Shown here: positions 5,724-37,565 of the stretch, in pieces | How the letters are laid out: every line of letters begins with the position of its first letter | How positions within the stretch are numbered: position 1 is the first letter of the stretch | Assembly: GCA_963840455.1 (NCBI GenBank) | Contig: CAWIYV010000011.1 | Location: 533,066 to 597,065, forward strand | DNA from: Nitrospirota bacterium | Lineage (GTDB): Bacteria > Nitrospirota > UBA9217 | Reading direction: 5' to 3' | DNA: 64,000 bases | Notes under the pieces: generated by a model | Told to the model about the DNA's origin: nothing | The model's input: the letters and a program-made list of their open reading frames with translations, nothing else | The model's database searches: none | Program-made: the position numbers and the translations under genes

Positions 5724-5739
5724 TGGCACGGACAATGCA
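5724..5739 (+). promoter_or_regulatory. candidate sigma-54 (-24/-12) promoter TGGCACGGACAATGCA
   Basis: GG and GC dinucleotides separated by exactly 10 nt, in a TGGCAC-N5-xTGCA context. Lies ~50 bp upstream of the PP2C gene start at 5787. A sigma-54-dependent activator gene is present in the window (15596..16942). Confidence 0.4.
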
Positions 5740-5786: not shown

Positions 5787-6695
5787 ATGATGCAACGGAT
5801 CGCCAATTTCGTCAGAGCGCTCTTCGGAATGGAGACATCCTGGAGCATCATGACTCTTTCCCGCGTCGGGATCGATCCGGTCACCGCGCGCTCTCTGACA
5901 CAGGTGCTCCAGCCCGCACACACGATACGGCTGAGACCGGAACCGGCGGAGGAAGACCCTGCAGCCGGCGTCCCCGGGCTTCTTTGGCACGGGATCACCG
6001 ACACCGGCCTCGTGAGAGACCATAATGAGGACAGCTTTTCGCTCCTCGATCTGGGGAACCGTGCGCTGTTCGTCGTGGCCGACGGCATGGGCGGCCATGA
6101 TGCCGGCGAAGTGGCGAGCCGCATCGCCGTTGATGCGGTGCGCCGGGAAGTACGCAACAACACCATGCCTTACGAGGCCCCCCTCATGACCGTTGAACGG
6201 GCGGTTCAGCAGGCAAATGCGGAGGTCAGGCGCGAAGCAGCGCGCAAGGGATCGAACATGGGCACGACGCTCTGCGTAGCGCTCGTAACCGACGGCGCGG
6301 CATATATCGGCAGCGTGGGGGACAGCAGGGCCTACTGGATGGAGAACGGTTCCATCTCCCAGATCACCGAGGACCACTCCCTGGTGGCGAAGCTGGTGGC
6401 AGCCGGGAAGTTGTCACAACAGGAGGCCAGGAACCACCCCCGGTCCAACCTGCTCTACCGCACCATCGGGACCGACGAAACGGTCAAGGCCGGCATGTTC
6501 CGGGTCGAACTGAAGAAAGGCGGCACGCTCCTGCTCTGCACTGACGGGCTCTGGGGGGATGTGGATGAGGAAGAGATCCGCAGGATCTGCACCGAAGAGC
6601 CGTATACCGAGATCGTTTGCGCCAGGCTGGTACAGCGTGCGAACGCGAACGGCGGCAAGGACAACATCACCGCAGTGGTGGTTAAGGTCCTCTGA
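5787..6695 (+). CDS. PP2C-family Ser/Thr protein phosphatase
   Basis: Motifs VVADGMGGHDAGEVAS, GTTL and TDGLW...GGKDNITAVVV. A ~70-aa N-terminal extension precedes the catalytic domain, so the true start may be internal. Confidence 0.85.
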   Translation: MMQRIANFVRALFGMETSWSIMTLSRVGIDPVTARSLTQVLQPAHTIRLRPEPAEEDPAAGVPGLLWHGITDTGLVRDHNEDSFSLLDLGNRALFVVADGMGGHDAGEVASRIAVDAVRREVRNNTMPYEAPLMTVERAVQQANAEVRREAARKGSNMGTTLCVALVTDGAAYIGSVGDSRAYWMENGSISQITEDHSLVAKLVAAGKLSQQEARNHPRSNLLYRTIGTDETVKAGMFRVELKKGGTLLLCTDGLWGDVDEEEIRRICTEEPYTEIVCARLVQRANANGGKDNITAVVVKVL

Positions 6696-6768
6696 TGGCG
6701 AAGCCCCGCGCATGGCTCCTGGAATGAATGAAATACAAGGTCCAACGTTGTAAAAGGAGGTACAGAAC

Positions 6769-8019
6769 ATGAAGAACGAACTGAACATCCGATGCGTCAT
6801 GAGCAAGGATGCGCTGACGGTGACCGGGGCGGAGCAGGCGGTCTATGCGCTCGTGGATATCAAGGCGGTGAGCAGCGGACAGCACCGCACCATGCCGGCG
6901 AACTTCGGCCTGGTGCTCGACCGGAGCGGCTCCATGGACGGCGAGAAGATGGAGAATCTGAAGGAGGCAGCGGGCTACGTGGTGGACCACTTGAATGATA
7001 ACGACCTCGTTTCCGTTACGGTCTTCGATGACCAGGTCGAGACGATTATCCCGAACCAGCCCCTGAAGGACCGCGAAGAGGTCAAGTCCCGGCTCGGATC
7101 GGTCATCCCCCGCGGCGGCACCCAGATCTCGGACGGGCTCAAGGCCGGTCTGGCGGAGGCCTGGAAGGGATTCTCCAAGGACCGCGTAAACCGCATACTC
7201 CTGCTCACCGACGGCCAGACGTGGGACGATGAGGCCGCGTGCCTCACGCTCGCCGACGAGGCAGGAAGAAAGGGCATCGCCGTTACGAGCATCGGCATCG
7301 GCGATGAGTGGAATGAGAAGCTCCTGCTCCAGCTCGCCGAGCGCTCTCACGGCAATTCGCACTGGATCCAGAATCCCATCGCCATCCTCGACGCGTTCCG
7401 GCAGGAGGTCGAGGGGGCGCAATCTGTCGCGGCAACGAACCTCAGCATGACGGCGCGCATGAGCCCGGGAGTCAAACCGGTGAAGGCATACGCCACCATG
7501 CCCATGATCTCCGACATGAGCACGAAGGCCGTGAACGGTCAGAACATCATGGCCGACCTGGGCTCCCTGGACAGCAGGCGGGGACAGGCAATGCTCATTG
7601 AAGTGCGAGTACCGCCCCAAAAGGCCGGCAAATTCCGGCTGGGCCAGGTAGAGGTCACCTATGACGTGCCCTCCCGGGGGATCAAGGGGCAAAGCGTCAA
7701 GGCGGACCTGTTCGTCATGTTCACTGATGACGCCGCAGCCGCGGCAAAGGTGAACGCCGAGGCGATGAACCTCGTTGAGAAGGTGAGCGCTTTCAAGCTC
7801 CAGACCCGGGCGCTCACCGAGGCCGAGGCGGGCAATATCGCCGCAGCGACGCAGAAGCTTCAGTCCGCTGCCACGGTACTTCTGAACCTGGGCGAGGACG
7901 AGCTCGCCGAGGCGGCGGAGAAGGAGATCCTGTCGCTCAAGAGGACCGGGGCCTTCACCGCAGCAGGGACGAAGAAGCTCGAATACGGCACCCGAAAACT
8001 GACGCAGGCATTGAAATAA
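6769..8019 (+). CDS. von Willebrand factor type A (vWA) domain protein
   Basis: MIDAS motif LVLDRSGSMDG, plus ILLLTDGQTWDDE. Strong AGGAGG RBS before the ATG. The C-terminal half is helical and low-complexity. Confidence 0.8.
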   Translation: MKNELNIRCVMSKDALTVTGAEQAVYALVDIKAVSSGQHRTMPANFGLVLDRSGSMDGEKMENLKEAAGYVVDHLNDNDLVSVTVFDDQVETIIPNQPLKDREEVKSRLGSVIPRGGTQISDGLKAGLAEAWKGFSKDRVNRILLLTDGQTWDDEAACLTLADEAGRKGIAVTSIGIGDEWNEKLLLQLAERSHGNSHWIQNPIAILDAFRQEVEGAQSVAATNLSMTARMSPGVKPVKAYATMPMISDMSTKAVNGQNIMADLGSLDSRRGQAMLIEVRVPPQKAGKFRLGQVEVTYDVPSRGIKGQSVKADLFVMFTDDAAAAAKVNAEAMNLVEKVSAFKLQTRALTEAEAGNIAAATQKLQSAATVLLNLGEDELAEAAEKEILSLKRTGAFTAAGTKKLEYGTRKLTQALK

Positions 8020-8110
8020 TTGCATAGGGCAGAGAGATGACCGCAATGGCTTGAACGCCATGCTCTCTGCGCCATGCGCTATGCATGATCCTAAAAAGGA
8101 GGACATACCC

Positions 8111-8554
8111 ATGAAATGCACAGAGTGTCAGACGGAGTACATCGAAGGCGCGCTCTTCTGCGAGGAATGCGGGGCGAAGATCGGGACCGCGAGTCAACTG
8201 ATTGACGCTGCAGGAACAATGGCCGATAAAGGGACGGCCCTGGTGCTCGCGTCCCCCGGCGGCGGTACGCTGGACATCCCGGACAAGGACGAAGTGGTCA
8301 TCGGCAGGGAAGACCCCATCAGCGAGGTGTTCCCCGACGTGGACCTGACAGACCTCGGCGGCATGGAGAACGGTGTATCGCGCAAGCACGCGGTCATCCA
8401 TCGGTCAGGAACGGACTATACCGTTGAGGACATGGGCTCCACGAACGGGACCTATATCAATAAAAAACGCATCCAGCCCCATGTGCCGCAGGCGATCAAG
8501 GCCGGCGACGAGGTCAGGTTCGGCAAACTGGCATTCTCGCTCGAGGCGGCATAA
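8111..8554 (+). CDS. zinc-ribbon plus FHA domain protein
   Basis: N-terminal CTECQ...FCEECGAK zinc ribbon. C-terminal FHA pattern (VVIGRED...GVSRKHAVI...STNGTYIN...VRFG). AAGGAGG RBS before the ATG at 8111; the ORF is open further upstream but without an RBS. Confidence 0.75.
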   Translation: MKCTECQTEYIEGALFCEECGAKIGTASQLIDAAGTMADKGTALVLASPGGGTLDIPDKDEVVIGREDPISEVFPDVDLTDLGGMENGVSRKHAVIHRSGTDYTVEDMGSTNGTYINKKRIQPHVPQAIKAGDEVRFGKLAFSLEAA

Positions 8555-8665
8555 CGCGAATGCAGAGCGCGGAATTCGGAGTGCGGAGTGATGAATCTAA
8601 AGAAGGAACCTGTTCTTATTCCGCATTCCGCACTCACCATTCCGCATTATGAAACGGAGGTACCA

Positions 8666-10918
8666 ATGCCCAGGCTCACTTATAAGACACTCGTCTACGG
8701 CGCGGCAGGGGCTTTCGGCGGATCAGCCGCCTGGGCCTTTGTCCTGGCCTTGTCCCAGACCATGCGCAGCGGTCTCCTGACCGAGATAGCGCTCGGCTCG
8801 ATCGTGGGCATGTTCATCGGCGGGTTCGTCTGGAGCCACGAGGCCATTACCGGAAGGCAGTTCCGCACCGCGCTCGAGCGCGCGGCCTTCGGCGCTCTGG
8901 CCGGCATCCTGGGCGGAGGGCTCGGCGCGGGTCAAGGCAATACGGTCTTTTCCGCACTCGGACGATACGTAGCGAACCTGGGCGGGTTCCGCGCGTCCCT
9001 GGGCATTGCCCTCTCCGTGGCCCTGGGATGGGCGGTCCTGGGGGCCGCGATCGGCATCAGCGGCGGCTTAATGGTCCGCTCCCGCTCGCGCGCCTGGTAC
9101 GGCCTGGCCGGCGGATCCCTGGGAGGATTTCTCGGAGGCTTTCTGTTCAATGCCCTCTCGACAACGAACGTCTGGTCGGCCCTGGCAGGTCTTACCCTGC
9201 TCGGGCTTTCCATCGGCGCTTTCATCAGTCTCGTCGAGGAAGCCTTTGTCTCGGCAAAGGTGAAAGTGATCAAGGGACGGCACCTGGGCAGGGAGTTCCC
9301 GCTCCTCAAGGAACTGAGCGTCATCGGCCGCGATGACCGCTCAGATGTCTGTCTTTCCGGCGCCGAAGGCGTAGCGAACCAGCACGCAGGCATCCGGCGG
9401 AACAACGGCCATTTCATCATCGAGACCGACGAAGAGGGAAAACCCGTGTACGTGAACCAGAAGATGACGCGGAACAGCAGGCTCGCCGATGGCGATGTCA
9501 TCCGCGTGGGCAGCATCCTGCTCATGTTCTCGGCGGTCAGGAAAGCAGTGGCGATCGCAGCCGTGACCGTCATGCTGTGCCTCTCCGTGGTGGCAGGGAG
9601 TACGGCACTGGCGGCCGGACCCGCATCAGCCCAGATCACCCAGTTCGACCTGAGCGGTTTCCCGACAGTGAAGATGTATGTTTCCGTACTTGATGCGGAC
9701 GGCAACCCGGTCCGCGGCCTGAGCAAGGAAGCGGTGACGCTCAGCGAGAACGGACGCCCCGTCGCGGTGGACGCGATGCAGATGACCGGGACGAAAGTCA
9801 CGCGCGAGCCCTTGAGCCTTGCCATTGTGGTGGACCGGAGCGAGTCCATGACCGGCGAAAAAATCGAACACGCCAGGGAATCGGTCGACCGTTTTCTTTC
9901 GCTCATGCAGCAGGGAGACCGGGCAGCCCTCATCGCCTTCAGCGATTCCATCGTGAAGCTCGAATCACTGACTGACAACATCGGACTTCTCAGGCAGGCG
10001 ACGGCCGCCATCCGGCCCGGCGGGCACACTGCGCTCTACGATGCCGTGGTTGCCGGCGTGGCCTCGGTCCAGGGAGTACCGGGCAGGCGGGCAGTGATCG
10101 TCCTGACCGACGGGATCGCCAACCGCGGCTCCCTCGACATCGACCAGGCAATCGCCGCAGCTGCTAAAGAGTACGTCTCAGTCTCCGTCATCGGCCTGGG
10201 CAAGGACGTCCGGGCATCTCGGCTCGAGCGGATCGCCATAGAGACCGGGGGCTCCTACTTTTTTACGCCCTCCGCCGTCGGACTGATGGATATCTACGAT
10301 ACCATCGGCAACAGGATCCGGAACGAGTACGCCGTCACCTTCGTGACCGAAAAGCGGGCTGCATACCTCCGTAACCTTTGGCTCACCCTTGCTTCAGGCC
10401 AACATGCAACACGCTCCTATTTCCAGCCCCAGTCCTCGCTCTTCGGTGCCGGTAGCATGCTGCCCCCATGGGCCTTTGCCGTCCCTCTTGCGAGCATACT
10501 GGGGCTTGTGGCCGTCTCGCTCCGCAGGGTGGAGCGGTACTACGAGACCGGCCATCTGAGCCTCGTGCGCGGCACGGGCACGAAGAAGGACATCAATATC
10601 AATTCCCGTGTGACCATTGGAAGGGACGAGCGTAATACCCTCGGCCTCTTCAAGGACAGCGGCATCGACCAGCGGCACGCCGAGGTCGTCCGGGAGAGCG
10701 GCAAATATATTATCGAGGACAAGGGTTCTGCTGCCGGGACCTACGTGAACAAGACCCGCGTCGCGGGCAGGCAGGCGCTTCAGGACGGCGACGTCATCAC
10801 CATGGGCAACGCCACCATCATATTCAGCGAGGAGACCAGGCCGACCTGTCCTGACTGCGGCGGCGCCCTGAGGCCGAAGGCGAAGTTCTGCGCCAAGTGT
10901 GGAGCGAAACAGGCTTAG
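8666..10918 (+). CDS. large membrane protein with Gly-zipper TM segments, FHA, vWA, second FHA and a C-terminal double zinc ribbon
   Basis: GGAGG RBS before the ATG at 8666. Domain order read from the translation: a Gly/Ala-rich TM block, FHA-like (SVIGRDDRSDVCL...VANQHAGI...VIRVG), another TM segment, vWA MIDAS (LAIVVDRSESMTG...VIVLTDG), a further TM segment, a second FHA (VTIGRDERNTL...RHAEV...GTYVNKTRV), then CPDCGG...FCAKCGAK. Confidence 0.75.
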   Translation: MPRLTYKTLVYGAAGAFGGSAAWAFVLALSQTMRSGLLTEIALGSIVGMFIGGFVWSHEAITGRQFRTALERAAFGALAGILGGGLGAGQGNTVFSALGRYVANLGGFRASLGIALSVALGWAVLGAAIGISGGLMVRSRSRAWYGLAGGSLGGFLGGFLFNALSTTNVWSALAGLTLLGLSIGAFISLVEEAFVSAKVKVIKGRHLGREFPLLKELSVIGRDDRSDVCLSGAEGVANQHAGIRRNNGHFIIETDEEGKPVYVNQKMTRNSRLADGDVIRVGSILLMFSAVRKAVAIAAVTVMLCLSVVAGSTALAAGPASAQITQFDLSGFPTVKMYVSVLDADGNPVRGLSKEAVTLSENGRPVAVDAMQMTGTKVTREPLSLAIVVDRSESMTGEKIEHARESVDRFLSLMQQGDRAALIAFSDSIVKLESLTDNIGLLRQATAAIRPGGHTALYDAVVAGVASVQGVPGRRAVIVLTDGIANRGSLDIDQAIAAAAKEYVSVSVIGLGKDVRASRLERIAIETGGSYFFTPSAVGLMDIYDTIGNRIRNEYAVTFVTEKRAAYLRNLWLTLASGQHATRSYFQPQSSLFGAGSMLPPWAFAVPLASILGLVAVSLRRVERYYETGHLSLVRGTGTKKDININSRVTIGRDERNTLGLFKDSGIDQRHAEVVRESGKYIIEDKGSAAGTYVNKTRVAGRQALQDGDVITMGNATIIFSEETRPTCPDCGGALRPKAKFCAKCGAKQA

Positions 10919-10935
10919 GGTAGGACCGATAACCC

Positions 10936-10964
10936 TTGACACGGACAAGGGCGGATCTTACATA
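10936..10964 (+). promoter_or_regulatory. candidate sigma-70 promoter (TTGACA-17-TACATA) for the kinase gene
   Basis: TTGACAcggacaagggcggatctTACATA lies ~110 bp upstream of the kinase start. Confidence 0.3.
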
Positions 10965-11075
10965 TGAAGAAGCATGATCAAAACTTTGCCCTATCAGCTC
11001 TTTTTTCAGGGTTCTGATCGGCCTCGATCAGCATCAAAGATCTTCTTTAAAGTGGCTATGTACGGAGGTCATACT

Positions 11076-12260
11076 ATGAGCCGGCTGCTGAAAAATAGAT
11101 ACGAGATCATCGGCCTCCTCGGTACGGGCGGGATGGGCTCTGTCTACAAGGTCGCTGACCGGGACTGGAAAGGCAGGATCCTGGCTGCCAAGGAGCTCCG
11201 TTCCGACGGGCTTTCTCTGGTGAAGGCGCAGGAGGCCCTCACCCAGTTCCAGACCGAAGCAAGGATCCTGGCGCGGCTCACGCACCCGAACCTTCCCAAG
11301 GTCTACGACTACTTCAGCTTGCCGGGAAGGCATTACATCATCATGGAATACGTGAAGGGAAAGACGCTGGAAGCGTTGCTTCGCAGCCGCAAGGGGCAGC
11401 CCGTGGATGAACGACTGGCCCTGTCCTGGGCGCTCCAGATCTGCCGGGCCATGCAGTTCCTGAGCGTCCAGAAGCCGCCCGTCGTGTTCCGCGACCTCAA
11501 GCCCTCAAACATCATGATCGAACCGGACGGCAAGGTCAAGTTGATCGATTTCGGCATCGCCCGGTTCTTCAAGGAGGATAAGCGGGAGGACACTTATGTG
11601 TACGGCACGCCGGGGTATGCTGCGCCCGAGCAGTACGGCACAGGCCAGACCAATGTGCGCTCCGACATCTTCTCCCTTGGCGCCACGCTCCACCACTGCC
11701 TTACTGGAAGGGATCCCTCGGAAAGCCCTCTCGAGTTTCCTGATGCTCGGTCGCTGAACCCAAATTTGAACAAGGGAACCTCCCGGATCCTCACGAAGGC
11801 GCTCGACCTGGAGATGGGCAGGCGGTACAAAACACCCCTCGATATGAAACGGGCGCTCCAGAGCGTGCTCCGGAACATCGAGATATTGCCGCGGGGTGTT
11901 GACAACGTCATCCATGCCGAGCCGGGAAAGCCCATCACGTTGCCGTGGTGGAAGAAGACCAGTTGGGTGAGCGTGCCGGTGATGGCACTCGGATGCAGCG
12001 GTACAACGGGTACGCTGTCGTCCGATGACCGTTGGCTCCATCCCAGGCCCAAGGCCTTCAGCCACGGTTCGTCGCAGCTTCTGTTCCGCGTCGACGGGGC
12101 AAAGCTCAGGATGGGAAGGGAGTACCACCCGCGGATCACCGTGTGCACCGATGCCGGCATTCTCCGGCCGCAGTTGTCCTTCAAGCGGCCATGGCCATGG
12201 ATGCTGATCGAAGCGGCGATCATTGCGGCGGCTCTAGCAGGGTTGTTCATGATAAGGTAA
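11076..12260 (+). CDS. Hanks-type Ser/Thr protein kinase with a C-terminal TM anchor
   Basis: Motifs GLLGTGGMGSVYK, HPNLPKVYDYF, FRDLKPSNIMI, KLIDFGIAR and GTPGYAAPEQ. GGAGG RBS 7 nt before the ATG at 11076. Hydrophobic C-terminus. Confidence 0.85.
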   Translation: MSRLLKNRYEIIGLLGTGGMGSVYKVADRDWKGRILAAKELRSDGLSLVKAQEALTQFQTEARILARLTHPNLPKVYDYFSLPGRHYIIMEYVKGKTLEALLRSRKGQPVDERLALSWALQICRAMQFLSVQKPPVVFRDLKPSNIMIEPDGKVKLIDFGIARFFKEDKREDTYVYGTPGYAAPEQYGTGQTNVRSDIFSLGATLHHCLTGRDPSESPLEFPDARSLNPNLNKGTSRILTKALDLEMGRRYKTPLDMKRALQSVLRNIEILPRGVDNVIHAEPGKPITLPWWKKTSWVSVPVMALGCSGTTGTLSSDDRWLHPRPKAFSHGSSQLLFRVDGAKLRMGREYHPRITVCTDAGILRPQLSFKRPWPWMLIEAAIIAAALAGLFMIR

Positions 12261-12784
12261 GGAAAAGACTCACTGACGAGAAGATTCCGCTTGTTGCGCA
12301 AACCTTCTCGTATAGGGAACATCATCATTAGCACTATTTAACAGCCTGTTCGTGCTTCTCCTCCCATTGCGCCAAGCAACAGGGATAACAACTTCCCCCA
12401 TATATCCGAAAAGTTTTGCAGATTGCTGAAAGAGTCCAGGATTGTCATTGCGAGGAGCGATTTGTGCGACGAAGCAATCTCTAAGCACCTGATATGTTTA
12501 ACTGCAAGATTGCTTCGCTACGCTCGCAAAGACAGTAAATAAGTCTTTTTCAATGACCTGTTAAATCCGCACCATGATCTCCTGCACTGATCCTGTACGA
12601 TGACCTGTAATGACCTCCCAGAACCAATAAGCCCGCACTGAAGGGTATCTTCACCTCTCTAGATATAAATATACAATAAATACAATATGTTATATGCTTG
12701 TCTAGCAAAAAACAAATTAAACTTGACAAAACTATTAAAATTAGTTAAGCTATTTACCATAGAACTACAAAGGAGGGACCTGAT

Positions 12785-13507
12785 ATGAAAGATCGACTGA
12801 TCGCGCTATTTGCCGCCCTGTTTACTGCATTTATCGCCCTGATTCTTGGAGGGTCATTGCTCGGCTTCGCCTATGGAGATCCCGGCGCCATCGGTGGCGG
12901 ATATCCAGCAACGAATCAGCCCGTCATCAATGAAAAGACCGGCGAGCTGGGAACAGACATCTTCAGACTGGTCGGCGATGGCCAGGCCCCCGTACTTTCG
13001 GAGGATGGAACACAGATCGCCTACTACGACGACAACTATCAGATCTGGACAGTGCAGGTAAACGGCAGCGGGCGTACGAAGCTTACCTCAGGGTACTTCG
13101 ATCTGTACCCTTCCTGGTCGCCGGACGGAAAGAGGATCGCCTTTCGTCGCAGCACCATGATCGAAGGCAGCAGTCACAGCGACATCTGGATCATGAACAG
13201 TGATGGCTCCGATCAGATGCCGTTGACCGATGCCCTGAGTACGCAAGGGGCCTATGACCGACCTGCATGGTCGCCCGATGGAACGAAGATCGCCATGGAG
13301 GCTGCTGTCGACGGAATGATGAGCGAGATCTATATCATCGACGTCAACACGAAAGTGCTCTTTAACGTGACCGCCGGGAACAGCCGGGACAGCAATAGGA
13401 TCAACCACCAGTCCCCCTCATGGCTTGCGGATGGCGAGCAGATCGCTCTTATCCGGAACGATGACTTTGCCATCATAAGGACTGACGGCACGGGACTGAA
13501 ACAGTGA
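12785..13507 (+). CDS. TolB-like periplasmic beta-propeller (PD40/WD40-like repeat) protein with an N-terminal TM segment
   Basis: Repeated PSWSPDGKRIAF / PAWSPDGTKIA motifs. AAGGAGG RBS. Preceded by an AT-rich promoter island. Confidence 0.7.
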   Translation: MKDRLIALFAALFTAFIALILGGSLLGFAYGDPGAIGGGYPATNQPVINEKTGELGTDIFRLVGDGQAPVLSEDGTQIAYYDDNYQIWTVQVNGSGRTKLTSGYFDLYPSWSPDGKRIAFRRSTMIEGSSHSDIWIMNSDGSDQMPLTDALSTQGAYDRPAWSPDGTKIAMEAAVDGMMSEIYIIDVNTKVLFNVTAGNSRDSNRINHQSPSWLADGEQIALIRNDDFAIIRTDGTGLKQ

Positions 13508-13579
13508 ATCGGAGGGAAGAACGTCAGGCGCGCGGAACTGGCAGAGAATACCGTCCTAGGTATTATGGTGTAAATTCAC

Positions 13580-13621
13580 TAACCGTTATGATATAATGGC
13601 GTTACTTGAGTAACCGTTATG
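13580..13621 (+). promoter_or_regulatory. pilin promoter region: TATAAT box flanked by two TAACCGTTATG direct repeats
   Basis: Repeat copies at 13580-13590 and 13611-13621. TATAAT at 13592-13597. The second repeat ends 10 nt before the pilin ATG. Confidence 0.4.
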
Positions 13622-13631
13622 CGGTAAGATT

Positions 13632-13835
13632 ATGATGAAGAACATGAAGGGCTTTACGCTTATCGAACTCCTGATTGTGGTGGCCATCATCGCCGTTCTG
13701 GCGGCAGTTGCCATCCCGCAGTTCGCGTCATATCGTGTGAAGGCCTACAACGCAGCGGCCCAAACCGATCTCAGAAATTTCAAGGCTCAGATGGAATCCG
13801 TAATGGTTGAACGGATGGTCTATCCTACCTTTTAA
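13632..13835 (+). CDS. pilA: truncated type IVa major pilin (Geobacter PilA-N / e-pilin type)
   Basis: 67-aa product. Class III signal peptide ends in G, followed by FTLIELLIVVAIIAVLAAVAIPQFASYRVKAYNAAAQTDLRNF. Closely resembles the short Geobacter sulfurreducens PilA as remembered (not verified here). Confidence 0.8.
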   Translation: MMKNMKGFTLIELLIVVAIIAVLAAVAIPQFASYRVKAYNAAAQTDLRNFKAQMESVMVERMVYPTF

Positions 13836-14044
13836 CAAACCAAAACAACCTTAACGCGGACCTGGCCATTGCTGGTCATTGATGCTGGTTTAATCGTGGT
13901 GCTGTCGCGGTAATGCTGATGGTGAAGTAGAGCAGGTGGAGACACTGAGGGATTCACCTACAATCTGAAACGGTGACGGTCAATGGGAAATGCAGAATAT
14001 CAGTTGAAACATGCACATAACGAAAATCCAGCGGGGATATTGAT

Positions 14045-14076
14045 CCCCGCTGGATTGATTTGAGCAATAGGCTCCT
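14045..14076 (-). terminator. perfect 14-bp stem / 4-nt loop hairpin, likely terminator of the 14165..15283 gene
   Basis: AATCCAGCGGGGAT-attg-ATCCCCGCTGGATT. The minus-sense transcript would continue UUUUCGUU after the stem. Confidence 0.45.
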
Positions 14077-14164
14077 AAATGGTTGTCATTGTTTTATGGC
14101 ATCACAATTATTGCACTATGAAGTCTCGCTGCAATAACCTTATGCCCTGCTGCAACACTGCAGT

Positions 14165-15283
14165 TTAATCTTCGGTGTTCTTTTCCTTCTTGTGATCAAT
14201 CGGCTCTGTACACTCATATTCAACTTCTACCCTGGCTGCAAGGAAGTTGGTGCTTGCGCTATCATATCCGTACAGCTTGACCTCAATCCATGCGTCGTTG
14301 GCAAGAGTTCCCTTGACAACTGCCTTGCTGAAGTCAACAGTCATCGTTTTTCCCTTTTTGTAGGTGAGGGTTAAGGTATGGTTCGTTGTCGTATAATTTG
14401 AAACCAATCCCTCCACTTTCACAAAGATCTCGGATGCCTCGATAGTCTTGTTAGCATAATCGATGGTCGAGGTCGTAACCAGTGTTCTCAAGCCATCCTG
14501 CTGAGCACGTTGGAGAAGATCGTCAAGAGCCGGTTGCTGAGACGATGTGATGCCCGAATACAACACCGTGAACGAACGAGGATGCCTCGAAAGGGTGAAT
14601 GCATCGGTTGATGTGGTCAGATTCACGACGAGGCCGGTAATTGCCTCGTGACGGTAAAGGCGCTCGAACTCATTTCCGTGGATAGGCGACACTTTCATGG
14701 TTACAGAGCACGACGGGGTGCCGAAGTTATCGACATCAAAATCTTTCAGCCTGAAATCGAGCGCAACTTTGTTGTAGTGGTTTACCAGCACGTTGACTGC
14801 GCCGTTGATGTCCAGTGAGCAAGAGTCTCCGTTGCAATACAGCCTGTTCACATGGTTGGCTTCGTCCTTATAGGATGTGAAGGAGCAAGTCGACTTGGTC
14901 ACGGCACTGTCCATGAGTTCAACGGACTTGTCAAATTCGATATGCAGCCTGTTGTAAGGCACTGCAGGGCATTCGGCAATGCTCAAAAGCTGCAACACAT
15001 TAGATAGATTAGCAATGTCGATCTTCAGCGGCGTCGATGGCGTCGTCATTGTCGTCAATACGTCACAAGTTGCGGTGCTGCCTGTATTCAGGACGGTCAC
15101 CTTGTTGATGGTCACGATCACCTGCTTATAATCCGACATGTTATCGGTGGCGTAGAGAGCCACCGTGCCGGTCGAAGCTCCTCCCCCGCTGTTCCCGCCG
15201 CTGCAGGAGTTGAACACGGTGACCGCTATAATGAGCAGTACTGTTCCCGCAATGACACTGATAAATGCATTTCTTTTACTCAT
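14165..15283 (-). CDS. secreted hypothetical protein (signal peptide, Thr/Ser/Asn-rich)
   Basis: 372-aa ORF. N-terminal hydrophobic signal followed by CSGGNSGGG. No recognisable catalytic motif. Convergent with the pilin gene. Confidence 0.55.
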   Translation of the reverse strand: MSKRNAFISVIAGTVLLIIAVTVFNSCSGGNSGGGASTGTVALYATDNMSDYKQVIVTINKVTVLNTGSTATCDVLTTMTTPSTPLKIDIANLSNVLQLLSIAECPAVPYNRLHIEFDKSVELMDSAVTKSTCSFTSYKDEANHVNRLYCNGDSCSLDINGAVNVLVNHYNKVALDFRLKDFDVDNFGTPSCSVTMKVSPIHGNEFERLYRHEAITGLVVNLTTSTDAFTLSRHPRSFTVLYSGITSSQQPALDDLLQRAQQDGLRTLVTTSTIDYANKTIEASEIFVKVEGLVSNYTTTNHTLTLTYKKGKTMTVDFSKAVVKGTLANDAWIEVKLYGYDSASTNFLAARVEVEYECTEPIDHKKEKNTED

Positions 15284-15595
15284 GACGCACCTCCTCCTTT
15301 TCTCGTCAGATGTTACGGCAGCGTTTGCTTGGCATCTTCATGATGTGTAATTCTGCGGTAGTAATATAATATATTTTATTATACCACTGAAAATGGCGCC
15401 CTTGTGTAACGGCCCCGGTTTTCTTGGACACGGATCTGTGGTAAATCATATGTCCGAGTTGAAGTATTTCAGAAAAATGAGAAGACGGGTAATTGAGGGG
15501 ATGACGAATTACGACTAAATGAGACATTGAATATTACAAAGAATTGAAACAACAACAGTTACAGGAAGTTGCTCGCTCGTCGTCAGACGCTACTG

Positions 15596-16942
<1,347 letters not shown>

Positions 16943-17146: not shown

Positions 17147-17545
17147 ATGGGACCTGCGGCAGGAGACGACAAGACCCGGATAAGTACTCCATCAGTATCA
17201 AAACAGAAGATCCCGGCGCGGTACCAGGCTTCCGTAGTGATCGTGCAGGGATACGCCGAGGGCATGGAATATTCCGTCGACAGAACGTACGCCGTGATCG
17301 GCAGGAACAAGGACGCTGCGGTCCCGCTAAGGGACCCCCTCGCCTCGCGTGAGCACGCTGTCATCGTGTTCCATGACGGCGTTTTCGTCCTGAAGGACCT
17401 GGAGAGCACCAACGGCACGCACATGCGGGGCGCGTCCATCAGGCAGCGGAAACTGCGCCACGGCGACAAGTTCCGCGTGGGAGACACGGTCCTCCAGTTC
17501 ATCCTCCAGGACAGCGGCAGGGCCAGGACCTACGAGATCGCGTAG
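17147..17545 (+). CDS. FHA domain protein
   Basis: 132-aa product with YAVIGRNKDAAVPL...SREHAVI...STNGTHMRGASI...FRVG. Confidence 0.8.
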   Translation: MGPAAGDDKTRISTPSVSKQKIPARYQASVVIVQGYAEGMEYSVDRTYAVIGRNKDAAVPLRDPLASREHAVIVFHDGVFVLKDLESTNGTHMRGASIRQRKLRHGDKFRVGDTVLQFILQDSGRARTYEIA

Positions 17546-18307
17546 ATGAAGCTCATTACCTTCGGTGCGACCGACCCCGGAAGGAAGCGGGCCAACAACG
17601 AAGACGCCTATCTCCTTGATGACCGGCTGCGCCTGTACGCCGTTGCCGATGGGGTGGGCGGCGTCGAAGGCGGCGAGGTCGCGAGCCGGATCGCCGTGGA
17701 AACGCTAGGGGAGGCGATGCCGGACCTGCTCGGCGACAGGGACCGCACCCCGCCCGCCGGACGCTCTTCCGGCGAGGGGACGGAATTGACTGCGTTGCGC
17801 TCGGCGGTCTCCTTCGCCCACCGAACCATTCGCGCCGCAGTCGGGAAGGCGCCCGGTCTTGCCGACATGGGTACAACGCTCACGGCGCTACTGCTGGCGA
17901 ATAAACGAGCGTACCTGGTCCATATCGGGGACAGCCGGGCCTATCTCCTCCGTGCCGGCGAACTCACCCAAATAACGAACGACCACTCCGTCGTTGCGGA
18001 GCAGGTACGTGCGGGACGTCTCACGGCCGGAGAAGCGAAGACCAGCCCCTACCGCCACGTGATCACCCGGGCGCTCGGCATCGCCGAGGATGCCGCCCCC
18101 GACCTTGCGGAGCGGCCGATACAGAAGAACGACACGTTCCTGCTGTGCTCCGACGGCCTGACCGAGATGGTGGATGACGCCGGTATCAGGACGATCCTCT
18201 CCGGATTCCCTACCCGGGATGCAGTGAAAAAGCTGATCGACGCGGCGAACGGCAGGGGCGGCGTGGACAATATCACCGCTGTCGTGGTGCAGGTGCTGGA
18301 GATCTAG
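17546..18307 (+). CDS. PP2C-family Ser/Thr protein phosphatase
   Basis: YAVADGVGGVEGGEVAS, GTTL, CSDGL and GGVDNITAVVV. Start abuts the FHA gene stop. Confidence 0.85.
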   Translation: MKLITFGATDPGRKRANNEDAYLLDDRLRLYAVADGVGGVEGGEVASRIAVETLGEAMPDLLGDRDRTPPAGRSSGEGTELTALRSAVSFAHRTIRAAVGKAPGLADMGTTLTALLLANKRAYLVHIGDSRAYLLRAGELTQITNDHSVVAEQVRAGRLTAGEAKTSPYRHVITRALGIAEDAAPDLAERPIQKNDTFLLCSDGLTEMVDDAGIRTILSGFPTRDAVKKLIDAANGRGGVDNITAVVVQVLEI

Positions 18308-18584
18308 CTGCACAGAACAACGCCTCGTGGAAGCACGGGTCCCGGCACCGTTGGGATGCACAGATCAGAGAAGAGCTCTACATACGTTGACCACGGAGGC
18401 CACCGAGGACCCAGAGGAACGCGAAACACCTCTCGTCCGGGCTTTTTTCGGTGAGCTCTGTTATCTCAGCGGAAAAGATTCGCTTTTGTATCAAGGAATC
18501 ATCGTTCTTATTCGTGTTCCCGCGCACCTGCGGGACCGTGGTTAAGAGGCAGTGGTCCGGGCATCTCCCGATCAGGATGGCAGT

Positions 18585-19892
18585 ATGGCGATCCAGCAGC
18601 TCAAGGATGAATACGAGATCCAGGACGAGATCGGCTCAGGCGGCATGGCCACGGTGTACAAGGCTGTCCAGAAGTCCCTCGCCCGTCCGGTGGCGATCAA
18701 GCAGCTGAAGCGGTCCTACCACGCCGACGAGCAGATCGTCCGGCGCTTCGAGCGCGAGAGCAGGGTGGCCGCCTCGCTCCAGCACGAGAACATCGTCCAC
18801 ATCTACGACTACTGGAAAAAGCCGACGTACGCCATCGTGATGGAGTACGTTGATGGCGCCAACCTTGCCGACGTCATCGAGAAGACCGGCGCCCTGCCCG
18901 TTGACGTGGGCGTCATGATCTCCATCCAAGTGTGCAGCGCCCTGGAGTACGCCCACATGCGCGGACTCGTCCACCGCGATATCAAGCCGAGCAACATCAT
19001 GATCAAACGGAACGGCGAGGTCAAACTCATGGACTTCGGCATCGCCCACACCCGGCACCTTGACGCCCTCACCCTGCCCGGCACGCTCATCGGGACGCCG
19101 GCCTACATGTCACCTGAACAGATCCTCGGCCATCAGCTCGATGTCAGGTCTGACATCTTTTCTCTCGGCATCGTGTTGTACGAGATGTTCACCGGGGTCA
19201 AGCCTTTTGCCGACGACGAGAAGCGGCCGGTAACGGCAAAGATCGTGCATGATGACTTCCTCGCCCCCCGCCGCGTGAATGGAGACCTCCCCCGGCGGCT
19301 GCAGTGGCTCATCAAGAAGTGCCTCCGGAAGAAGCCGAAGCGGCGCTATGCTTCCATGCTGGAGGTCGAGCGCAAACTGGGAAAGCGGCTCGCGGGCAGA
19401 ACGACGAAGGCTGCCTCGCTCCAGCGGATCTCGGACTGCCTCGTCTCGCGCAAGGTCTTTGAGGCAGCGCCGGAACAGGATACGATGATTGTCCCGCCGG
19501 AAGCGAAGTTGTCTGGACGGCTCAAGGCGTCGATCGCGGCTGTTACAGCGCTCATCGTCCTGGCAGTAGGAGTAGGGCTCTACTATCAGCGGATGCGGAC
19601 AGACCAGGCAACGGTACGGCCTCCTGCTGCGCCGGCCACTCTGCCGTCAGCTGCCGGGCCGCCCCTGTCACGGCCCGTGGAGACCGCTCCGGCCCGCCTG
19701 CCAGCGCCGCTGGGTCAGGCTACCGGGACAGCGGGTACCCTCAGCCAACCGGCCCCGTCAACTCCTCCCTTGTCGGTCGAGCAGAGGAAAGAACCGACCG
19801 TCGAAAAAAAGACAGCCACGACCAAAAAGAAGAAGAAAAAGAAAGCGCCTCCCGCAACGACCAGCATGATAACCCCGCCCCCTTTAGCATGA
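18585..19892 (+). CDS. Hanks-type Ser/Thr protein kinase with a TM segment and a Pro/Ala/Thr-rich, poly-Lys C-terminal tail
   Basis: IGSGGMATVYKA, VAIKQL, HRDIKPSNIMI, DFGIAH and GTPAYMSPEQ. The first in-frame ATG is at 18552; 18585 gives MAIQQLKDEYEI directly before the kinase domain. Confidence 0.8.
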   Translation: MAIQQLKDEYEIQDEIGSGGMATVYKAVQKSLARPVAIKQLKRSYHADEQIVRRFERESRVAASLQHENIVHIYDYWKKPTYAIVMEYVDGANLADVIEKTGALPVDVGVMISIQVCSALEYAHMRGLVHRDIKPSNIMIKRNGEVKLMDFGIAHTRHLDALTLPGTLIGTPAYMSPEQILGHQLDVRSDIFSLGIVLYEMFTGVKPFADDEKRPVTAKIVHDDFLAPRRVNGDLPRRLQWLIKKCLRKKPKRRYASMLEVERKLGKRLAGRTTKAASLQRISDCLVSRKVFEAAPEQDTMIVPPEAKLSGRLKASIAAVTALIVLAVGVGLYYQRMRTDQATVRPPAAPATLPSAAGPPLSRPVETAPARLPAPLGQATGTAGTLSQPAPSTPPLSVEQRKEPTVEKKTATTKKKKKKKAPPATTSMITPPPLA

Positions 19893-24831: not shown

Positions 24832-25138
24832 GGCGGGGAGTATAACATAGTCGCCCGCAAGGGGAAAAGTAAAAAAACACGCCTGCCGTCACGCGCGCCC
24901 CGCTTCCCGTGCCTGGAGACCGGAAGGATTTCCCTTGACATAATACAGGATTTATATTATCTTCATTGACAGAAGAAACGCGGCATCTGCCGCAAGGCAT
25001 CATCCGCGAGAAGCGCCACAGGGGATAGCAGATGGGCAGGGAGACAGGCTCCCTGCCCGGTTTTTTCCGTGGTCGCGTAAAAAAGAAAAGGCAGGCCACC
25101 TGACGGTGAACCTGCCTTTATTGGTTGATGGGTGGTGC

Positions 25139-25339
25139 TCAGACCTTTACGACATTCGCTGCCTTCGGGCCCTTCGGGCTGTCTTCAATGTCGAACGTCA
25201 CTGCCTGACCTTCGGCCAGGGACTTGAAGCCAGCGTCCTGGATCGCAGAAAAGTGAACGAACACGTCTGCGCCGTCCTCTGCGGCAATGAATCCAAAACC
25301 CTTGGAGTCATTGAACCACTTCACGGTTCCTTTTGCCAT
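25139..25339 (-). CDS. cspA: cold-shock protein (CspA family)
   Basis: [18 protein letters not shown]...[10 protein letters not shown], ~66 aa. AAGGAGG RBS. The ORF track extends it upstream, but the conserved start is the internal M. Confidence 0.85.
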
Positions 25340-25390
25340 GTGTGCAGAACCTCCTTCCGTGAGAATTGAAGAAGCGGAAACGTGCGTCAC

Positions 25391-25420
25391 AAAAAAACCG
25401 CAAAGATGGGATCTTTGCGG
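25391..25420 (-). terminator. intrinsic-terminator-like hairpin between the cupin gene stop and the csp start
   Basis: Plus strand AAAAAAA-CCGCAAAGAT-ggg-ATCTTTGCGG. A minus-sense RNA gives a 10-bp stem then a U7 run. Lies ~60 nt after the cupin stop and ~55 nt before the csp ATG. Confidence 0.55.
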
Positions 25421-25482
25421 CCGCGTGAACGACAAAGACTTCCGAACTTCAGTGCCGATACTCGCATATCCCCCGGCCAAAG

Positions 25483-35073: not shown

Positions 35074-37565
35074 ATGTACGAAGATTTTCTCCCGCTCGTC
35101 AGCAAACCGGCCCGGTACATCGACTCCGAGGTCAACGCAGTGCACAAGGACCCCGGGTCTATGCGGACGAAGGTCTGTCTCCTCTTCCCCGACACCTACG
35201 AGGTCGGCATGTCGCACCTCGGCCTGCGCATCCTGTACGATATCATCAACAAACGGCCGGACGCCGTCTGCGAGCGCGTGTTCTCGCCCTGGACCGATTA
35301 CGAGGCGAAGCTCCGCGCGTCGGGCCGCCCCCTCCGGAGCCTGGAGTCGAACCTCCCGGTCAGGGAGTTCGACATCGTCGGCGTGACGCTCCAGTACGAA
35401 CTCTCGTATTCCAATATCCTGACCGCCCTCGACCTATCGCACATCCCTCGACGATCCATGGACCGGAACGACAGCCATCCGGTCATCGTGGCCGGCGGTC
35501 CGTGCAGTGTGAATCCCGAGCCGCTTGCGGATTTCATCGACGTCTTCTTCATCGGCGAGGCCGAGGAGGCGGTGAATGAGCTCATCGAACTGAAACAGGA
35601 ACACGGGGCACGTCAGCTATTCTTCGAGGCCCTGGCAAAACGGACAGGCTTTTATGTTCCCGTCGCTGGGAAAGACCGCTGTCCGCCGCCGGTTTCTCAC
35701 GAGCATCGATGCCGCGCCCTATCCTGCAAAGCCCCTCGTGCCACTGATGAAGCCCATCCATGACCGGGTCACGGTCGAAGTGGCGCGCGGCTGCATCCGC
35801 GGCTGCCGCTTCTGCCAGGCAGGCATCATCTACCGGCCCTACCGCGAGCGGCGCCCGGAAACGGTGAAGGACCTCCTGCACGGGTCGCTCGCATGCACGG
35901 GGTACGAAGAGCTCTCCCTCGCCTCCCTGAGCACCGGCGACTACTCGGACATCGAACCGCTCATCACCGGACTGATGAAGACCTATAAGGACAGCCGCGT
36001 CTCGGTCTCGCTCCCCTCGCTCCGCGTCGGCACGCTCACGCCCGCCATGATCGAGGCCATTGCCGGGACCAGGAAGACCGGGTTCACTCTGGCGCCTGAG
36101 GCAGGGACCGAGCGGCTGCGCCGGGTGATCAACAAGCCCGTGACCGACATGGATCTCATGGACGCGGCAGAGACCATCTTCGCGAACGGCTGGAGCACGC
36201 TCAAGCTCTACTTCATGATCGGCCTGCCCACGGAGACCGACGAGGACCTCGACGGCATCATCCGGCTGGCAAACGAGCTCTTTGCCAGGGGCAGGCGTTC
36301 TTCGAAGCGCCATGTACAGCTCAACGTCAGCGTCTCGACCTTCGTTCCCAAGCCACACACGCCCTTCCAGTGGCTGGGCCAGGCGCCCATCGAGGAGGTC
36401 CGCAGAAAACAGGCATACCTTGCCCAACGGCTCCGTAAACGCGGCATCGTGCTCAAGGTCCACGACCCCGAGACGAGCCAGCTTGAAAGCGCCTTTGCCC
36501 GTGGCGACGCGTCGCTCGGGAGGGTGATCGAGAAGGCCGTTGACCTCGGCTGCCGCTTCGACGGCTGGACGGAGTCCTTCGACTATCAGAAATGGACCGA
36601 GGCCTTTGCAGCATGCGGCATCGATCTCCGCAGCCTGTGCCGGCAGGACGTTCGATCTTTCGGAAGCGCTGCCCTGGGGCCACATCAAGAGCGGCGTGAC
36701 CACGGAATTTCTCCGAAAGGAATACCGGCGCGCCATGGAGGCAACGGTCACGGAGAACTGCCGGACCGAGTGCGAACATTGCGGCATAGGGTGCAAGGAC
36801 GGCGGAACGCTCGGGCTCGGCAAGCCTGCTGCACCTGCCCGAGGAGAACGAGAGGCTGCTCCGCTGCCTGCGGAGAAGCTGTCCTCTGCCCCTCCGGAGA
36901 TCACAACGCGCATCAGGATGAAGTTCTCTCGCCTCGGCCGCATCCGCTTTCTGTCCCATCTCGACTTCATGACCCTGTTCCACCGGACAACGGTCCGCGC
37001 AGGAGTGCCCGTCGCCTTCTCCCAGGGCTTCAACCCCCACCCGAAGATAGCATTCGGTCCTGCCCTGTCCGTGGGCATGGAGAGCGTGGCCGAGTTCCTC
37101 GATATGGAGACCGATCCATTCATTGACCTGATGCAGGTGACAAAGTCGTTAAACAGCGCCCTGCCCGATGGCGTCAGGGTCCTGGAGGCCCGGATCATTC
37201 CGAAGCAAGCAGGGTCGCTTTCCGGCAGCATCGGCAGATACCTCTACGAGGTCAACGTGCCTGCCGACCGGACAGCGGATGTTGAAGAGCGGATCATCGT
37301 ATTCCTGGAGCGTGATGCAGTGATCGTGGAAAAGGACGGCAAGCAGAAGGACATCAGGCCGGGGATCGAGGCGATCGCGGTCAAAGGACCTGCCCAGCTC
37401 GAGATAACGATCCAGGACTCGGAAATGGTCAAGCCCCGCATCCAGGATGTCATCGAGAAGCTTTTCGATATCGGCCACGATCAGGCCGTGCTGTTCAACA
37501 TCAAGCGGACAGCCATGTTCGTGAAGGAGAACGGGACCTGGCAGAGCCCGATGGATGCGACGTAA
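35074..37565 (+). pseudogene. radical SAM protein (TIGR03960-like B12-binding-like N-domain plus CxxxCxxC core) continuous with a DUF2344-like C-terminal domain; reading frame interrupted twice
   Basis: Three overlapping ORFs in frames 1, 2 and 3 (35074..35763, 35654..37126, 36540..37565) read as one protein. The FYVP|SLGKT junction lies at ~35665. The CGIDLR|AGRTFDLSEALPWGHI junction lies at ~36640. Core motif VEVARGCIRGCRFCQAG. The tails after each shift are Arg/Pro-rich and look out of frame. Confidence 0.6.

Follow-up and report, generated by a model that had tools for sequence, protein, structure and literature searches.

Truncated type IVa pilins of about 60 amino acids (aa) are central to a long dispute over whether Geobacter "nanowires" are pili, and the e-pilus debate has not been settled (PMC9207759, PMC12954529). 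Published surveys have reported such pilins from the Deltaproteobacteria cluster alone, where the truncated e-pilins of Desulfuromonadales form a branch of their own (10.1101/668343). The gene for Geobacter sulfurreducens PilA-N (GSU1496) has pilA-C downstream, pilS-pilR upstream, and a sigma-54 promoter; pilA-N and a GSU1497-like pilA-C co-occur in 8/8 Geobacter genomes analysed (PMC5174107); and the PilA-C gene is needed to stabilise PilA in G. sulfurreducens, according to Richter 2011 as cited in PMC5174107. Here we analyse a 64,000-nucleotide stretch of a Nitrospirota genome assembly (GCA_963840455.1, contig CAWIYV010000011.1, positions 533,066 to 597,065; hereafter the window), which contains a pilA-N gene that has neither pilA-C, nor pilS-pilR, nor a sigma-54 promoter next to it.

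A literature search revealed no description of truncated pilins in Nitrospirota, and e-pili and Nitrospir* are co-mentioned only incidentally; neither the phyletic extension to Nitrospirota nor the orphan arrangement seems to have been observed before. The protein belongs to a known family and is an ordinary accessory paralogue that involves no new mechanism. The locus and its relatives indicate that the PilA-N family is abundant in Nitrospirota-type genomes, that PilA-N copies can multiply and leave PilA-C, and that the resulting orphans are kept under purifying selection. The orphan provides a natural test case for the dependence of PilA-N on PilA-C.

Family membership, orphan status, and aromatic residues

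The orphan gene comprises 67 codons, and its product (MMKNMKGFTLIELLIVVAIIAVLAAVAIPQFASYRVKAYNAAAQTDLRNFKAQMESVMVERMVYPTF) begins with the prepilin motif MMKNMKG/FTLIELLIVVAII..., where the slash marks the cleavage site. The leader is of class III: it is short and basic, with Gly-1, Phe+1, and Glu+5, followed by a hydrophobic helix. The 7-residue leader is encoded by positions 13632–13652, and the 60-residue mature peptide by positions 13653–13832. A motif search of the 64-kb window in six frames revealed KG/FTLIELL of this pilin as the sole prepilin-type cleavage motif and found no second prepilin. The protein scores above cut-off with Pfam N_methyl (PF07963; 38.4 bits, cut-off 21.2) and with TIGR02532 (34.5 bits, cut-off 16.3).

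A phmmer search of the PDB returned, as its three best matches, chains of the "geopilin domain 1" class, covering the whole length of the pilin: 7tgg_A, which is G. sulfurreducens PilA-N (E 1.2e-23, query residues 2–65); 9egp_A (E 1.3e-22); and 2m7g/6vk9 (E 9.3e-21). Among solved structures, the next pilin class follows at E 6e-09, and GspG, the major pseudopilin of type II secretion systems (T2SS), at E 1e-3. The NCBIfam equivalog models of GspG, ComGC, and other pilins leave the protein far under every cut-off (GspG, TIGR01710, 42.6 bits versus 88.85; ComGC, NF040999, 34.6 bits versus 75). An AlphaFold2 model built with 36 homologues shows one helix, residues 10–61, and no globular domain (mean predicted local distance difference test score 79); a Foldseek search with this model against the PDB gave zero matches, as expected for a lone helix, and is uninformative. 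Based on the geopilin domain 1 matches, the sub-cut-off GspG and ComGC scores, and the single-helix model, we assign the window pilin by sequence to the truncated PilA-N (GSU1496-like) type IVa pilin family. A truncated PilA-N-type pilin is what an earlier sequence-only reading of this DNA had proposed; neither a T2SS or competence pilin as best match nor a poor alignment to PilA, which that reading had named as telling against its proposal, was found.

Identification as a T2SS pseudopilin or a competence (Com) pilin would account for the weak N-terminal similarity to the GspG and ComGC models, and a possible role in secretion has been discussed for the PilA-N/C filament of G. sulfurreducens (PMC12954529). 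GspG shares the prepilin leader and the hydrophobic N-terminal helix with the window pilin. The window pilin, however, lacks the globular domain of GspG and any gsp context, and Pfam scans of 46 open reading frames (ORFs) across the 64-kb window revealed no T2SS gsp or com genes. Together with the model scores and the E-values of the solved structures, this leaves the T2SS or Com identification close to refuted and scarcely credible.

The mature pilin aligns end to end with G. sulfurreducens PilA (39/60 identical, 65%) and resembles G. sulfurreducens PilA-N (2M7G, 6VK9, 7TGG) and the 9EGP homologue in having the same class-III leader and cleavage motif. In particular, the window and G. sulfurreducens proteins are similar in mature length (60 aa versus 61 aa), share F1, F24, Y27, Y32, and Y57-P58, and form a single helix with no globular domain. 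They differ in that the window pilin has A14 for G14, M51 for F51, the gained aromatics F43 and F60, and, of the two proteins, alone has a methionine ladder, M47/M51/M55. The full-length type IVa major pilins of Nitrospirota and Geobacter are homologous to the window pilin over their first 60 mature residues, including YP 57–58; the 203-aa pilin of locus L093, from the metagenome-assembled genome (MAG) GCA_054640655.1, is 63% identical to it across those residues. Full-length pilins, for example the L093 pilin and Geobacter uraniireducens Gura_2677 (the latter as cited in PMC5174107), have in addition a globular beta-sheet domain, weakly related to PilA-C, that the window pilin lacks.

The Pfam scans of the window found no pilA-C, pilR/pilS, pilB/C/D/M-Q/T, or gsp gene, and no pilus or secretion ATPase, platform protein, secretin, or prepilin peptidase. 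A tblastn search of the window with four PilA-C-like proteins from related loci gave nothing better than E 0.25. Within 64 kb the pilin is a true orphan, as the sequence-only reading had stated, and is so non-trivially, since related short pilins with readable context carry a downstream PilA-C-like gene. Specifically, these relatives encode a signal-peptide protein of 104–119 aa a few tens of bases downstream, and a profile of 15 such proteins matches geopilin domain 2, that is, PilA-C (9egp_B, 2.4e-11; 7tgg_a, 2.3e-08; 6vk9_D, 5.3e-05); a lone PilA-C-like protein gave no match in the PDB, and the 15-sequence profile was needed. Geobacterales pilA-N loci have, moreover, a sigma-54 activator immediately upstream. 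A pilA-C remnant 3′ of the window pilin was considered and rejected: the 330-nucleotide (nt) spacer there comprises a relic of a kinase 3′ end and an ancestral intergenic region with terminator.

The mature pilin contains seven aromatic residues (F1, F24, Y27, Y32, F43, Y57, and F60; 7/60, 11.7%), versus six (about 10%) in G. sulfurreducens PilA; the sequence-only reading, which had called the protein aromatic-poor at its C terminus, was wrong as regards the total. We compared the protein with the five in-silico e-pilin criteria of Bray et al. (10.1101/668343), four of which agree with it. Aromatics exceed the threshold of at least 9.8% of the mature pilin; the largest aromatic-free gap, F1–F24, is 22 residues, within the threshold of 22 aa; and positions 1, 24, 27, and both 32 and 57 are aromatic, where 32 and/or 57 is asked for. 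An aromatic at position 50 and/or 51 is absent (V50, M51), so membership of the conductive e-pilin class, which the sequence-only reading had proposed, agrees with four points of five and is not established. Position 51 is methionine in 61/120 and phenylalanine or tyrosine in 27/120 of the 120 best homologues. M51 is typical of the subgroup of the window pilin, which has A14 (G14 in Geobacterales) and a conserved M47; the orphan adds M55, which places methionine at i, i+4, and i+8.

These residues bear on the proposal that the product, as PilA-N alone, forms a helix-only filament (an "e-pilus" as Lovley and Reguera use the term) that functions without PilA-C in extracellular electron transfer. 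The stand-alone gene and the aromatic content, spacing, and positions are what such a filament would call for. The V50 and M51 residues are not, no CxxCH multihaem motif occurs among the predicted proteins of the window, the close relatives all keep pilA-C, and the solved PilA-N filaments are all PilA-N/PilA-C heteropolymers, with a PilA-N-only filament disputed (PMC12954529). We regard an e-pilus of this kind as very improbable indeed, and a PilA-C-independent helix-only filament as very improbable.

Split-locus relatives and the origin of the copy

By source names, the host of the window is Nitrospirota, not Geobacter. In particular, for the PD40, MreB, MreC, SRAP peptidase, and acyl-CoA ligase proteins, the named mates in 90%-identity clusters are all Nitrospirae/Nitrospirota; the window's own sequences in these clusters derive from an NCBI contig of 924,579 bp. 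The label "Geobacter-type" given by the sequence-only reading is accurate as to family likeness but misleading as to host: the cluster mates are named Nitrospirota, and the pilin falls in an A14/M47/M51 subgroup with pilA-N/pilA-C loci syntenic with a named Nitrospirota MAG.

Searched against species-representative genomes, the pilin has no close match; its best matches, at 59–69% identity, are in MAGs of Geobacterales/Desulfuromonadales. The nearest pilins outside the orphan clade are closer, at 75–84% aa identity, and lie in five loci on metagenome contigs (L083, L084, L087, L088, and L091). The L088 pilA-N agrees with the window gene in 85% of mature residues and 88.8% of nucleotides, with homology confined to 13623–13810. 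In all five loci, pilA-C lies 40–50 nt downstream of pilA-N and is followed by genes for two membrane proteins, an ABC ATPase, a TPR protein, and glycosyltransferases; the pilin genes are divergent from an aminodeoxyfutalosine deaminase gene and mqn radical-SAM genes (futalosine pathway), and the deaminase has its best named homologues in Nitrospirota. The flanking mqn and housekeeping genes of L087 are collinear with those of L093, the locus of the named Nitrospirota MAG, with 63–86% identity. Beside those housekeeping genes, L093 carries its unsplit 203-aa pilin gene (6689–7300, minus strand).

At the same syntenic Nitrospirota locus, the pilin is unsplit in L093 and split in the metagenome contigs, into PilA-N (mature 60 aa) and PilA-C (111–116 aa); the split counterparts lie at 8001–8604 of L087 and 1795–2386 of L088, and also in L083, L084, and L091. 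The C-terminal part of the unsplit pilin gives a weak alignment to the PilA-C profile (hhalign E 3e-4). On the basis of the housekeeping synteny with the named MAG, the split PilA-N/PilA-C form is present in Nitrospirota-type genomes at what is apparently the native major-pilin locus. The syntenic unsplit and split loci offer a natural view, before and after, of the kind of fission that has been proposed for the Geobacter pilin gene, and are usable to reconstruct how the gene split.

Direct transfer from Geobacter was considered and rejected: the Nitrospirota-type loci are closer (75–88% versus 59–69%), and their flanks are syntenic with the named Nitrospirota MAG. Sequence comparison shows the window pilin as a paralogue of the Nitrospirota-type split-locus PilA-N lineage rather than a direct Geobacter import. 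The aromatic pattern and the A14/M47/M51 signature of the split-locus proteins near mqn are identical to those of the window pilin, whereas pilA-C, the ABC/TPR/glycosyltransferase genes, the sigma-54 promoter, and the GGAGG ribosome-binding site of the split loci are all missing from the window copy, which lies at an unrelated locus. The two samples that contain the window pilin also contain L088-type genes, on contigs with a GC content of 48% versus 59%; this lower GC indicates that the L088-type contigs probably derive from a different organism. The source of the orphan would be either intragenomic duplication or transfer between Nitrospirota.

Locus L179 (protein P0032) is a precedent in which more than one PilA-N shares a single PilA-C. 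It contains two tandem pilA-N genes (1275–1478 and 1767–1970) that are 84% identical in aa sequence, each with its own TGGCAT-N6-TGC sigma-54-type promoter, followed by a single pilA-C; the additional PilA-N copy has an MMKN- leader. The locus shows PilA-N paralogy in the group; its copies are 70–73% identical to the window protein and, unlike the window copy, stay in the pilin operon.

Selection, expression signals, and possible role

The identical pilin protein occurs on three other metagenome contigs, assembled independently, one of which (5,476 bp) shows the gene order of the window: kinase, PD40, pilin, DUF4382, activator. On four further contigs, these neighbours accompany a 97% variant of the pilin. 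The identical protein and gene order on independent contigs argue that the pilin locus is not an assembly artefact; an assembly chimera was rejected because the junctions are common to independent assemblies.

The window pilin gene differs from those of L001 and L002 by three synonymous and no non-synonymous substitutions. Its ratio of non-synonymous to synonymous divergence (dN/dS) is 0.24 versus L088 and 0.09, at a synonymous divergence (dS) of about 0.72, versus L092, a second 67-aa orphan pilin that is 87% identical in aa sequence, lies in a different context, and has no pilA-C within 775 nt downstream. These comparisons show a pilin that appears to be maintained under selective constraint, and the value of 0.09 between two orphan lineages argues against neutral decay.

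The canonical Nitrospirota-type pilA-N copies have a conserved TGGCAT-N6-TGC element with sigma-54 −24/−12 spacing and a GGAGG ribosome-binding site. Pattern search and alignment of upstream regions revealed no sigma-54 element upstream of the window pilin; CTGGCAGAGAATACCG, the candidate considered there, was rejected, having the −24 GG but not the −12 GC. The tandem repeat just upstream holds TGATATAAT (13589–13597), an extended −10-like element that may act as a promoter. A gene string of order PP2C-VWA-FHA-VWA/FHA-STK428 occupies 5787–12260, and PD40 and the pilin continue on the same strand, presumably as one operon. A terminator scan found no terminator-like site in 12200–13650, between STK428 and the pilin; downstream of the pilin, a 101-nt stretch (13990–14090) containing a perfect hairpin folds at −34.3 kcal/mol (z −3.9). 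Given the shared strand, the sigma-54 promoter at 5724, and the lack of a terminator-like site between, read-through from the signalling operon into the pilin is plausible.

We consider it fairly probable that the orphan serves as an auxiliary isoform of PilA-N: it would form an alternative helical core and draw on the same PilA-C as the PilA-N of a canonical locus. This reading is based on the precedent of L179 and on relatives whose C-terminal helix is near-identical. By analogy with the family, a PilD-type prepilin peptidase would cut the 7-residue leader after Gly-1 and N-methylate Phe+1, the hydrophobic N-terminal helix would anchor the mature peptide (60 aa) in the inner membrane, and a type IVa pilus machinery from another locus would polymerise it. 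Assembly would most probably be as an alternative core pairing with the canonical-locus PilA-C, or by copolymerisation with the canonical PilA-N. Control appears to have been rewired: the sigma-54 promoter of the relatives is gone, and expression might come from read-through of the upstream sigma-54 operon, from the local extended −10 element, or from both.

A less probable account, although one to be taken seriously, is that the gene is a passive copy, a weakly expressed or unexpressed pilA-N captured in a recombination hot spot, that has lost its PilA-C partner and plays no part of its own; at most it would serve as a silent sequence donor when the expressed locus recombines. Loss of the sigma-54 promoter and of GGAGG relative to the canonical copies fits such a copy, as do the restriction of DNA homology with the canonical loci essentially to coding sequence (the interval shared with L088), the unrelated cargo that the site gathers, and the PilA-C requirement for PilA stability cited in PMC5174107. 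However, the ORF is intact in all copies seen, several 95–99% variants keep the gene in the same context, the orientation permits read-through transcription, and the low dN/dS at a dS of about 0.7 between orphan lineages is hard to square with neutral decay.

Several points weigh against an auxiliary isoform. The host was assigned from names rather than from a marker-gene phylogeny; the dN/dS values, calculated on only 67 codons, are rough; the extended −10 promoter assignment is a consensus match only; and the Shine-Dalgarno GGAGG of the relatives has become GCGG in the window pilin lineage. In addition, the stability of PilA in G. sulfurreducens depends on PilA-C, yet none is encoded near the window pilin, and the idea that the orphan pairs with a PilA-C from another locus is pure conjecture on our part.

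A broader proposal would combine a PilA-C-independent PilA-N, self-polymerised or swapped in under the FHA/Ser-Thr-kinase/sigma-54 operon, with split pilins widespread at the native locus in Nitrospirota. We regard this combination as decidedly unlikely. If true, the split PilA-N/PilA-C arrangement, described so far only for Desulfuromonadales, would be widespread in Nitrospirota, and the coexistence there of split and unsplit forms would imply either that the whole module moved between phyla or that the gene split a second time, in parallel.

Insertion site and neighbouring genes

To define the insertion site, we gathered 80 orthologous loci (L095–L174) with the FHA-type sigma-54 activator as anchor (features of the window are listed in the table). 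In the conserved order, the activator is flanked by STK446, PP2C, and FHA genes to one side and by STK428 and VWA-FHA genes to the other; STK428 orthologues adjoin the activator in relatives. The gap between activator and STK428 is at most 120 nt in L115, L131, L149, and L151, and is 0.2–2.8 kb, with unrelated cargo, in others; no other locus has a pilin at this site. As cargo, L162 carries a lipoprotein gene, L110 a toxin-antitoxin-like pair, L122 a sensor gene, and L103 PD40 alone.

In L150, which has an activator 96% identical to that of the window, DUF4382 is the only cargo at the site. In a blastn comparison of L150 with the window, homology halts at 12259 and restarts at 13856, and the same 75 nt of L150 (reverse-complement 1296–1370, the kinase 3′ end) align to both 12185–12259 and 13856–13930. 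The homology break and the duplicated kinase 3′ end identify the intervening 1.6 kb as an insert, and the presence in L103 of PD40 without pilin between equivalent repeats identifies the pilin cassette as a separate unit within it. The islet 12260–15600 has a GC content of 38–56%, versus 60–67% in the flanks, and a third-codon-position GC content (GC3) of 0.61–0.68, versus 0.77–0.86. The alignments show the pilin as inserted cargo at a hypervariable hot spot between STK428 and the activator. The PD40-containing insert is bracketed by the duplicated kinase 3′ end in both the window and L103, with no integrase seen.

Table. Features of the pilin locus in the window, and proteins of the nearest related loci
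Feature	Coordinates	Strand	Description
Orphan pilA-N gene	13632–13835	+	67-aa prepilin, ATG start, TAA stop (ORF list, sequence)
Window-specific insert	12260–13855	+	1.6 kb: AT-rich spacer, PD40 gene, pilin cassette (blastn versus L150)
Pilin cassette proper	~13510–13855	+	L103 has PD40, no pilin, between equivalent repeats
Left copy of duplication (present STK428 3′ end)	12185–12259	+	L150 alignment
Right copy of duplication (degenerate relic of original STK428 3′ end)	13850–13930	+	Reads LTRTWPLLVIDAGLIVVLSR*; begins 15–20 nt past pilin stop
Tandem 30-nt repeat	13561–13590 and 13592–13621	+	80% identical; just 5′ of pilin start
Near-consensus sigma-54 promoter, TGGCACGGACAATGC	5724–5738	+	Pattern search; ~50 nt upstream of signalling gene string
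Ser/Thr protein kinase STK428	10974–12260	+	Pfam Pkinase 1.1e-44; conserved left border
PD40 (TolB-like) beta-propeller, N-terminal membrane/signal segment	12785–13507	+	Pfam PD40 1.8e-16; GC3 0.68
14-bp perfect hairpin between convergent genes	14025–14056	.	First terminator-like structure past STK428-PD40-pilin
DUF4382 protein, lipoprotein-like signal peptide	14165–15283	-	Pfam DUF4382 2.5e-08; older cargo of hot spot
FHA-domain sigma-54 enhancer-binding protein	15596–16942	-	Pfam Sigma54_activat, FHA, HTH_8; conserved right border
Proteins of nearest loci L083, L084, L087, L088, L091			P0007, P0009, P0012, P0015, P0017

The immediate neighbours are those the sequence-only reading had described, a TolB-like propeller gene upstream and a convergent secreted-protein gene downstream, the latter now identified as DUF4382. 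The PD40 protein is TolB-like only, scoring 73.6 bits with the NCBIfam TolB model against a cut-off of 343. The DUF4382 gene occurs without pilin or PD40 in L150 and L152. At its position in L175 (2735–3712, minus strand), one of the loci with the 97% pilin variant, the 372-aa gene is replaced by two shorter called genes, of 109 aa and of 203 aa, the latter extending up to the end of the contig; the DUF4382 gene may be disrupted here. A PADLOC search with three islet proteins gave no defence-system match.

The activator lacks a receiver domain, and is therefore not PilR; its place beside the insertion site is ancestral. The activator and a second FHA-PP2C-kinase set (17147–19892) lie near the signalling string, and the three together look like a self-contained, phospho-Ser/Thr-controlled sigma-54 regulon. 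The position of the pilin at the end of the PP2C-VWA-FHA-kinase string, with its sigma-54 promoter and FHA-type activator, and with no globular partner nearby, would suit a membrane-resident decoy or signal in place of a filament subunit: a helix-only peptide in the inner membrane that modulates a sensor, as Pseudomonas major pilins do with PilS. Such a role would tie the adjacent FHA/Ser-Thr kinase/sigma-54 cluster to pilus biogenesis. The signalling cluster is ancestral, however, and in most relatives the site is free of a pilin, which argues that the linkage between pilin and signalling genes is recent and probably accidental; we regard a decoy or signal as highly improbable.

Further features of the site and window were noted. 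The left end of the insert (12260–12785) is a 525-nt AT-rich stretch (GC about 38–46%) that contains no convincing gene and has sigma-70-like hexamers 5′ of the PD40 gene. In L096 (1–2880), the activator is 98% identical to that of the window, and the region on the FHA132/PP2C side has no match to those window proteins, which suggests a rearrangement or a chimeric contig. An Rfam scan of the window revealed nothing near the pilin locus; it identified a cspA thermoregulator at 25086–25478 on the minus strand (84.2 bits, gathering score 78, full-length model), unexpected outside enterobacteria-like contexts. At 35074–37565 on the plus strand, three overlapping ORFs, each in a different frame, encode the domains Radical_SAM_N2, Radical_SAM, and DUF2344, which suggests either that a radical-SAM gene is frameshifted or mis-assembled or that gene starts overlap.

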